From the IMG/VR virus record IMGVR_UViG_2529292920_000016: a stretch of 32,229 bases of DNA, one strand, 5' to 3'. The translations under genes and the position numbers were made by a program. Within the stretch, counting starts at the first letter, position 1. Each line of letters begins with the position of its first letter. Of the stretch, positions 10,284 through 10,581 are shown piece by piece. This stretch comes from a virus. Lineage: Duplodnaviria > Heunggongvirae > Uroviricota > Caudoviricetes. A model generated the notes under the pieces. It made no database searches. It saw only the letters and a program-made list of their open reading frames with translations, and was not told the DNA's origin.

Positions 10284-10581
10284 TTGGCAATTTACGCAGT
10301 AAAGACTACTTGTTCCGATCTCGGGTCGGTACTAACCAACACATATCAATCCTGCAATATAACCGAATCTTTCATAGGGGGGAGAAAAGCTTGGTCTCGA
10401 AGATTCGCTTTACAGCACACATTCCATGAGAAGAACAAAACCTTGCCTTGTCTGCAAGAAAACTAAGAATCTCCGGGTGATCCAACTTCCGTTGGGCCAT
10501 AAGAAAACGGAAAGCACAGTTCGTTATCTGGGTATAGAAGTTGATGATGCATTAGAGATCTCTGAATCGATCGAAGTCTAA
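10284..10581 (+). pseudogene. Degraded tyrosine recombinase (integrase) C-terminal fragment
   Basis: Frame ending at 10579-10581 reads ...KKTKNLRVIQLPLGHKKTESTVRYLGIEVDDALEISESIEV-stop, matching the conserved C-terminal LGH...T..RY (catalytic Tyr) region of tyrosine recombinases. Upstream pieces (...FALQHTFHE...) lie in another frame and no N-terminal domain is present. Confidence 0.5.

Follow-up and report, generated by a model that had tools for sequence, protein, structure and literature searches.

Introduction

Does a decayed recombinase gene in the middle of an AT-rich block of prophage cargo reveal how that cargo was acquired, or is it only debris? The question was raised by a stretch of viral DNA of 32,229 nucleotides (IMG/VR record IMGVR_UViG_2529292920_000016), which is referred to here as the window and which its sequence identifies as a Rac/Qin-like lambdoid prophage of E. 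coli. Based on the letters alone, a remnant at 10284-10581 had been taken for the fossil of an integrase that had lost its N-terminal domains, had once mobilised the cargo and marked the island as an independently acquired module. In this study, which was based on alignment with intact relatives and on comparative genomics, we consider it probable that the remnant belongs to an inactivated short tyrosine recombinase (10061-10581) of a cassette-array system that is carried by many mobile elements, a judgement that includes the mechanism proposed below. The pseudogene itself is already annotated and, taken alone, is an ordinary pseudogene; the recombinase family and its surroundings point to a widespread, apparently unannotated cassette system with an integron-like outcome but another enzyme and other sites. 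In the study in which the P2 and P4 hotspots were defined, the mechanism of exchange was given as unknown, and no published description of the array system was found in the open-access literature by accession, site sequence or concept. Such arrays may explain the exchange of anti-phage defence genes.

The recombinase pseudogene

The hallmark C-terminus that had been reported in one frame was confirmed, as ORF 10426-10581 ends in ...LPLGHKKTESTVRYLGIEVDDALEISESIEV and 10384-10578, when translated, matches residues 137-200 of an intact 200-aa 'site-specific integrase' (WP_001305361.1) with 91% identity (E 1e-39), which also bears out the expected similarity to tyrosine recombinases in this interval. 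On the DNA level, 10007-10623 shares approximately 90-92% identity with intact genes from hundreds of E. coli genomes, a similarity that, judged by alignment, is far beyond chance. Aligning the window to these genes, a check proposed with the original prediction, placed the upstream parts in other frames, as had been supposed, and mapped three lesions (Table 1). The remnant is thus real, but the interval initially given to it covers only the 3' 57% of the pseudogene. The claim that the N-terminal domains are missing did not hold; the gene still begins with its start codon at 10061 and keeps codons 1-38, intact relatives are approximately 200 aa long, and what was lost is an internal 82 bp. R51 is deleted and the residues K79, H148, R151, H174 and Y183 are distributed over two frames that a stop codon separates, so that the window copy can be classed as a dead member of the tyrosine recombinase superfamily. 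Its C-terminal fragment alone scored 17.4 bits against Pfam PF00589, which is under the cut-off of 27.1. The identical locus of E2348/69 carries the PGAP label 'tyrosine-type recombinase/integrase; frameshifted; internal stop', and megablast found no second copy of the gene in that genome. The 681 bases around the pseudogene are 99.9-100% identical in 17 complete genomes, including EPEC E2348/69, and 98.2% identical in one more.

Table 1. Positions of the array features and of the lesions of the recombinase pseudogene in the window.
Feature	Position	Strand	Details
Decayed A-type site, left hotspot border	8738-8761	+	GTTTGCTTTGTGTAAGAAACGGAT; 6 of 20 specified positions mutated
DUF5677 gene, cargo of the left cassette	9113-9955	+	Pfam PF18928, E 3e-9; PHROG 4167, E 1e-176
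B' half-site, left end of the recombinase module	9999-10021	+	GACCTATTTCGCTCTTGAGAGAC; from alignment to intact ends
Hairpin that pairs the ribosome-binding site	10028-10060	+	ACTCAAATCTTC-N9-GGAGATTTGAGT; immediately 5' of the ATG
Pseudogene of a short (200-aa) tyrosine recombinase	10061-10581	+	from alignment to intact genes and the PGAP mark
Lesion 1, 82-bp deletion	10175/10176		codons 39-66 gone, including catalytic Arg51
Lesion 2, +1 insertion	10213		makes TGA at 10211-10213
Lesion 3, -1 deletion (frameshift)	~10378-10383
GC-rich hairpin	10588-10609	+	CAGGGCTG-CAGCAG-CAGCCCTG; past the stop codon; 3' arm is the inner part of A'
A' half-site, right end of the recombinase module	10600-10623	+	AGCAGCCCTGTGCCAAGAGCGTAC; homology to other contexts stops here
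Right cassette, Septu defence system	10624-13060	+	ptuA 10994-12367; ptuB 12345-12983

The recombinase family and its genomic locations

The length of approximately 200 aa is evidently native to the family and not a product of decay, because the intact relatives are all of about this length and PF00589 covers residues 35-184 of an intact 200-aa homologue (69.1 bits against the cut-off of 27.1). The N-terminal DNA-binding domain or domains and the length of ~330-450 aa that characterise integrases of the lambda or P4 type are absent from the family. A protein search returned at least 7999 related clusters, and the best 120 of them (170-256 aa, 76-96% identity) came from Proteus, Providencia, Pantoea, Idiomarina, Cycloclasticus and others, while a scan of species-representative genomes gave 80 loci with 61-97% identity in Gamma- and Betaproteobacteria. 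The residues R51, K79, H148, R151, H174 and Y183 were invariant in 12 diverse relatives. Comparison with the models of known recombinases gave scores far from those required for membership: 15.9 bits against a cut-off of 265 for IntI (TIGR02249, a model that includes the extra domain particular to IntI), 25.5 and 18.2 bits against 222 and 221 for the FimB/FimE models PRK09871 and PRK09870, 49.6 against 335 for XerC and 32.1 against 329.6 for XerD; the XerA score was also far under its cut-off. NCBIfam assigned no specific family to the recombinase, although its 'tyrosine-type DNA invertase' model matched weakly (E 8e-6), PADLOC gave no match for it, and a PDB sequence search returned only weak matches to XerD and XerA.

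Members of the family were found in CP4-like islands, in the lambdoid hotspot between the replication genes and hok (the window included), in the P2 Z/fun hotspot between the tail-fibre assembly and sheath genes, in an ICE between arsenic and copper resistance blocks, in Providencia islands beside smpB (tmRNA region) and beside a folD-like gene, and on plasmids. Homology across these contexts is limited to a block of ~700 bp with sharp ends, which corresponds to 10007-10623 of the window, and the cargo differs on either side of it. In the contexts examined, the recombinase gene always lies within the cargo and the host elements own a separate full-length integrase at their edges; neither the window gene, which is placed mid-cargo, nor the relatives examined were found at an element edge beside an attachment site. 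What had been described as an integrase fossil is therefore a fossil recombinase, but not a classical integrase shorn of its N-terminal domains.

The DUF5677 gene and the recombinase gene occur as a pair also in P2-like prophages, at the equivalent Z/fun hotspot site, with ~89% identity and directly after an A site (the sites are described below), and one of these prophages has a near-intact recombinase gene. The two genes thus travel together, and most family members do not adjoin DUF5677. Apart from this, two truncated modules were observed, one in a Yersinia P2-like phage (L006:3992-4074) and one on the 227-kb plasmid p133-1 of an E. coli J53 transconjugant (L007:4992-5074). In both of them the module has been reduced to the B' site, the leader and 20 bases from the start of the recombinase gene, and both stop at the identical base (...CACCGTGGAA) with unrelated DNA beyond, which suggests a recurrent breakpoint.

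The array in the window

The array occupies the cargo hotspot of the prophage, which lies between the replication genes and hok/sok, and its exchangeable AT-rich block spans 8762-13060. On the left, 8738-8761 aligns to the intact border sites of two related lambdoid prophages, L004:5843 (GTCCGCTTTGTGCCAAGAGCGGAC) and L008:2131, and backbone homology ends there. On the right, the backbone resumes exactly at the B site in these two prophages and at 13061 in the window, from which the right B site and ~130-240 bp of backbone have been deleted. The window is accordingly laid out as a decayed A site, the DUF5677 gene, a decayed B', the dead recombinase gene, a mutated A', the Septu genes and a deleted right B. 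Because the gene, its flanking sites and the left border have decayed and the right border has been lost, the array of the window is a frozen fossil.

No fewer than two separate cassettes make up the cargo on the two sides of the recombinase module, one of DUF5677 with its linked recombinase gene and one of Septu. The original prediction that the island is an independently acquired module stands insofar as the AT-rich block is exchangeable cargo in a prophage hotspot, but it has to be revised in that this block was not integrated as one unit. PADLOC identified PtuA (E 1.9e-165) and PtuB (E 5.7e-82), whose genes overlap, and the neighbouring cargo, in which the predicted gene of a PtuA ATPase precedes that of a PtuB HNH nuclease, conforms to the definition of Septu. 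Of 5426 E. coli genomes, just 19 contained the whole cargo block (8772-13060). No 'empty site' was found for the DUF5677/Septu junction, as the Septu cassette occurs in 19 E. coli genomes that all have the same arrangement; no phage copy of this cassette was found, and outside them there was one small plasmid-labelled record only. A search of 8300-15200 for generic repeats gave just short, chance-like matches, and Rfam returned no RNA match in 8600-13060.

Several further features of the region were observed. A promoter-like site (TAGACA, 17 bp, TAGAAT) lies at 10793-10821, upstream of ptuA, and suggests that the Septu cassette has a promoter of its own, unlike typical integron cassettes. Between A' and ptuA, ~115 bp at 10655-10774, within a 64-aa minus-strand ORF (10635-10829), match approximately 108 enterobacterial plasmids with ~80-91% identity; these matches are mostly unannotated, and the stretch has no Rfam match. 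Beyond the array, an IS481-family element (~13294-14388, with its transposase at 13243-14331 on the minus strand) splits hok/sok within 13133-14559, with an Rfam sok match at 13133-13299 (112 bits) and the hokD ORF at 14404-14559. This element is absent from the related prophage L004, and GGAGA is duplicated at both of its ends. Elsewhere in the window, Rfam matches at gathering score were obtained within 4534-4585, 19106-19352 and 20037-20226 for DicF (minus strand), two tRNAs and the small RNA STnc100.

Ends of the recombinase module

The recombinase gene and its leader are enclosed by two half-sites, B' and A'. Intact B' ends follow the pattern GTCCRCTnnTCGCTCATnAGGGAC; in the window the centre TCGCTC is kept, the outer arm has decayed and one base has been lost. 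The A' of the window retains an intact centre, GTGCCA, with a mutated outer arm (GCGTAC for GCGGAC). Together, the two ends form terminal inverted repeats of ~20 bp in enterobacteria and ~25 bp in Pseudomonas (for example GTCCGCTTCTGGCCGGTTAGCGAC). No transposon-like target duplications were found in the flanks of the module ends. In the Pseudomonas and Betaproteobacteria loci (L053-L102), the centres of the terminal repeats were observed to be identical and inverted (such as TGGCCG/CGGCCA or GGGTCG/CGACCC), and free sites with matching arms lie nearby. The centres of these modules fit inversion as well as exchange. In enterobacteria, the A centre is not the same as the B centre.

Between B' and the start codon, a hairpin pairs the ribosome-binding site. 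It is unique in the window, was found in none of 100 shuffles, and its structure is kept across genera through many compensatory changes. Of 69 leaders of the family, 48 have this site fully paired, compared to 27 of 127 control ORFs, and the hairpin probably keeps the translation of the recombinase low by hiding this site. The same inverted repeat was also considered as an attachment site; it occurs as a single copy in the window, and a hairpin that hides the ribosome-binding site fits better. A promoter scan revealed no consensus sigma-70 promoter for the recombinase gene to which the conserved motif CAACCATA could be assigned. Past the stop codon, the GC-rich hairpin has a stem that is conserved and a loop that varies in all relatives, and it is followed by the conserved motif GCCAnnAGCGGAC.

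Cassette-border sites and array organisation

Cassettes are delimited by two 24-bp sites, A on the left border (GTCCGCTnnGTGCCAnnAGCGGAC) and B on the right (GTCCGCTnnTCGCTCnnAGCGGAC), which share the same 7-bp inverted arms and have different 6-bp centres in a 7-2-6-2-7 layout. Two positions distinguish the reverse complement of the A centre (TGGCAC) from the B centre (TCGCTC), and both were invariant in a sample that had been chosen for near-consensus centres. An array runs from backbone through A, cassette and B, across an 18-bp linker, to the next A, cassette and B, and then returns to backbone. The recombinase gene fills one linker position with B' and A' as its own ends, and the half-site arms that face the gene are non-canonical. 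All of the A and B sites in the loci examined have the same orientation as the recombinase gene, and shuffled loci gave 0.09 site matches per locus.

Such arrays were seen in E. coli islands, in lambdoid and P2-like phages and on plasmids, and the borders of the hotspots in lambdoid phages, in P2 Z/fun and in CP4-like islands are A on the left and B on the right. The exact A and the exact B pattern each occurred in at least 120 IMG/VR viral contigs. From IMG/VR, 223 viral loci with 492 sites were obtained; these loci were picked by exact site matches, and the conservation of the sites is overstated for this reason. Between neighbouring sites in the 223 loci, 164 transitions led from A to B, with a median gap of 1626 bp and never one of 25 bp or less, and 67 from B to A, with a gap of 25 bp or less in 52 of them, as compared to 11 from A to A, 16 from B to B and just 11 between opposite strands. 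A recombinase gene was located nearby in only four of the 223 loci, which implies that most arrays would need the enzyme in trans. In E. coli, the 66-bp B-linker-A junctions were found in approximately 880 genomes, where they are 75-96% conserved and unannotated. A and B offer a simple sequence rule for delimiting cassettes and for finding new cargo.

Two observations concern the DNA outside the borders. A conserved block (TTGACA...TGGCACAGGGT) lies just outside the left border A, at 8690-8737 in the window and at the borders of L004, L008, L023 and L006; it is common to the lambdoid borders and partly to those of P2, and it may function as an accessory site or as a promoter that reads outward. 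The flanks of the P2 hotspot are themselves inverted, with AATCTGACA preceding A and TGTCAGATT following B.

Cassette cargo and footprints of exchange

The 197 cassettes contained 320 ORFs in 214 clusters, 182 of which ORFs had the same and 138 the opposite orientation. Among the cargo were PD-T7-1, PD-T7-5, DarTG, SIR2, TIR, AbiH and Lit (Peptidase U49), as well as matches to the AriA model (PARIS ATPase), several PADLOC candidate systems (PDC) and metabolic genes.

A pairwise comparison of 176 cassettes with their flanks showed 22 pairs of 95% identity or more whose flanks were unrelated on at least one side (on both in 18), and 219 pairs in which both flanks were shared and the cassettes were unrelated. 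The differences between FDAARGOS_536 and CREC-544 (loci L002 and L106) were confined to one A-to-B stretch. In ETEC H10407, a single hybrid A site (GTCCGCTCTGTGCCAGATGCGGAC) stands where Nissle has an A site, a hypothetical gene with the recombinase gene, and A'. The left flank of the hybrid is that of the first Nissle site and its right flank is that of the second; the next cassette is 99.4% identical between the two strains and the left backbone just 92.5%. The position of the crossover was narrowed further by a 984-bp cassette, which is shared at 99-99.9% identity by a P2 hotspot, a lambdoid hotspot and a third array. In its hybrid sites, the outer arm and two variable bases track the backbone and the inner ones track the cassette, which places the crossover within the 6-bp centre. 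Likewise, one 1917-bp cassette occurs with two kinds of end, B' and then the recombinase gene, or a canonical B and then backbone, and the module ends thus take part in the exchange. Identical cassettes occur in P2-like phages, lambdoid phages and CP4-like islands, all delimited by the same 24-bp sites.

Proposed mechanism and alternative explanations

Based on these observations, the recombinase would bind the shared arms of the sites and swap strands across the 6-bp centre. An A site would pair with A or A' and a B site with B or B', and recombination between A and B should be barred because their centres differ at two positions. A single crossover would excise or insert a circle that consists of a cassette and a linker, while paired A-A and B-B crossovers would swap a cassette between two replicons, and the hairpin over the ribosome-binding site would limit how much recombinase is made. 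The claim that the recombinase mobilised the cargo holds to the extent that the ends of the family join precise, site-bounded exchanges; that the enzyme is their catalyst is something we infer from anatomy and comparative junctions. In a broader form, short recombinases with a catalytic domain only would drive a natural two-site cassette exchange with shared arms and incompatible 6-bp centres, moving defence genes and other cargo among P2-like and lambdoid phages, CP4-like islands, ICEs and plasmids across Proteobacteria, and would supply the missing mechanism for the rapid turnover of 'defence hotspots'; for this wider claim, we consider the balance to be even. In view of the shared sites, cassettes and crossover points, the hopping of defence systems between unrelated mobile elements becomes directly testable with one protein and two 24-bp sites.

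Further points count against exchange by the recombinase: the half-sites beside its gene have non-canonical inner arms, and junction repeats of 24-66 bp could also serve homologous recombination by RecA or phage Red. The sites and junctions might accordingly be portable homology patches for RecA, lambda Red or a similar system, with the recombinase module as a selfish hitchhiker that lodges in linkers. Lambdoid phages encode Red-type recombination functions, and such an origin would agree with the rarity of the gene in cis among the viral loci, with the sharp terminal inverted repeats of the module, which resemble those of an autonomous element, and with the conservation of the B-linker-A junctions in E. 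coli genomes. Homology patches, however, do not readily account for breakpoints that are exact even though the border sites provide just ~24 bp of identity, nor for hybrid sites that confine the crossover to the 6-bp centre. An asymmetric centre between inverted 7-bp arms is the design of a tyrosine recombinase core site, the two classes of centre are strictly distinct, B' and A' appear in recombinant junctions, and homologous exchange does not require so strict a grammar of co-orientation. We therefore regard this explanation as unlikely, although it is the strongest of the alternatives.

Inversion was considered as well, in that the module could act as a FimB- or Hin-like switch that sends read-out transcription leftward or rightward into the cargo and makes defence phase-variable. 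The enzyme has the ~200 aa and the sole catalytic domain of FimB and FimE and matches an invertase model weakly (E 8e-6), the module ends are 20-25-bp inverted repeats that are exact inverted copies at their centres in the Pseudomonas type, and the flanking genes face away from the module in several loci. Yet the centres of the two enterobacterial ends disagree at two positions, every A and B site in the loci examined points the same way as the recombinase gene, and no inverted arrangement appeared in these loci or among the matches listed for 207 genomes with the full Nissle context. The invertase scores also fall far under the cut-offs (25.5 against 222 bits), and we consider a switch highly improbable.

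Even less credible is that the recombinase was recruited as a non-recombining partner of the cargo, for example as a DNA-binding protein that acts with DUF5677 in defence, with the sites as regulatory operators. The DUF5677-recombinase pair is indeed conserved between P2 and lambdoid phages, and a recombinase-guided screen reported DUF5677 among the domains enriched near defence genes (PMC12632615). Against such a partnership, most family members lie elsewhere than beside DUF5677, no catalytic residue varies, the Tyr nucleophile included, PADLOC does not match the recombinase, and the sites mark the breakpoints of exchange. Least credible of all is that a classical phage or island integrase brought in the entire AT-rich island and then lost its N-terminal DNA-binding domains, since, although the C-terminus and the frameshifts are real and the gene does lie inside the AT-rich block, the N-terminus is present, the intact family has 200 aa everywhere, the gene sits mid-cargo rather than at an edge, the cargo on its two sides varies independently and the host elements own full-length integrases.

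Comparison with known systems

In membership tests, the array system lacked defining features of each of its natural analogues, i.e., integrons, pdif modules and FimB/FimE. It resembles integrons in that a tyrosine recombinase gene lies beside or inside an array of diverse cassettes, mostly of one to two genes, that many arrays have no recombinase, as do the CALINs (integrase-less attC clusters), that the sites adjoining the recombinase gene are unlike those of the cassettes, just as attI is unlike attC, and that the cargo is rich in anti-phage defence genes. However, the enzyme is not IntI (15.9 against 265 bits), has 200 aa and is devoid of a core-binding domain. Its sites are conserved 24-bp palindromes of the double-strand type with 7-bp arms and not the long, imperfect palindromes of attC, which recombine as folded single strands. 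Moreover, integrons have one attC per cassette, whereas two classes of site alternate here around an 18-bp linker; both gene orientations are common (182 same, 138 opposite), the Septu cassette has a promoter-like site, and the arrays lie in the hotspots of phages, islands and plasmids.

The pdif modules of Acinetobacter are similar in being discrete, in having short sites of alternating polarity and in recurring as the same modules in different replicons. The pdif sites, though, are 28-bp XerC/XerD sites with an 11-6-11 layout that are served by the host Xer proteins; A and B lack this layout and are unrelated to the dif sequence, and here a dedicated short recombinase gene, which scores far under the XerC and XerD cut-offs, lies in the array. 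FimB and FimE are likewise tyrosine recombinases of ~200 aa without core-binding or arm-binding domains, and the placement of the gene between inverted repeats recalls hin. In contrast to both, no inversion was found in the loci examined and the centres of the end sites differ; in addition, the similarity to FimB/FimE is marginal (25.5 and 18.2 bits) and Hin is a serine recombinase.

A further parallel is engineered cassette exchange with pairs of lox or FRT sites, in which two flanking sites with shared arms and incompatible centres permit replacement in a fixed orientation by paired crossovers. That system is a laboratory design, whereas the natural equivalent is one that we infer from the anatomy of the sites and from the 219 pairs in which unrelated cassettes share the same flanks. 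The array system is also a possible natural tool for cassette exchange.
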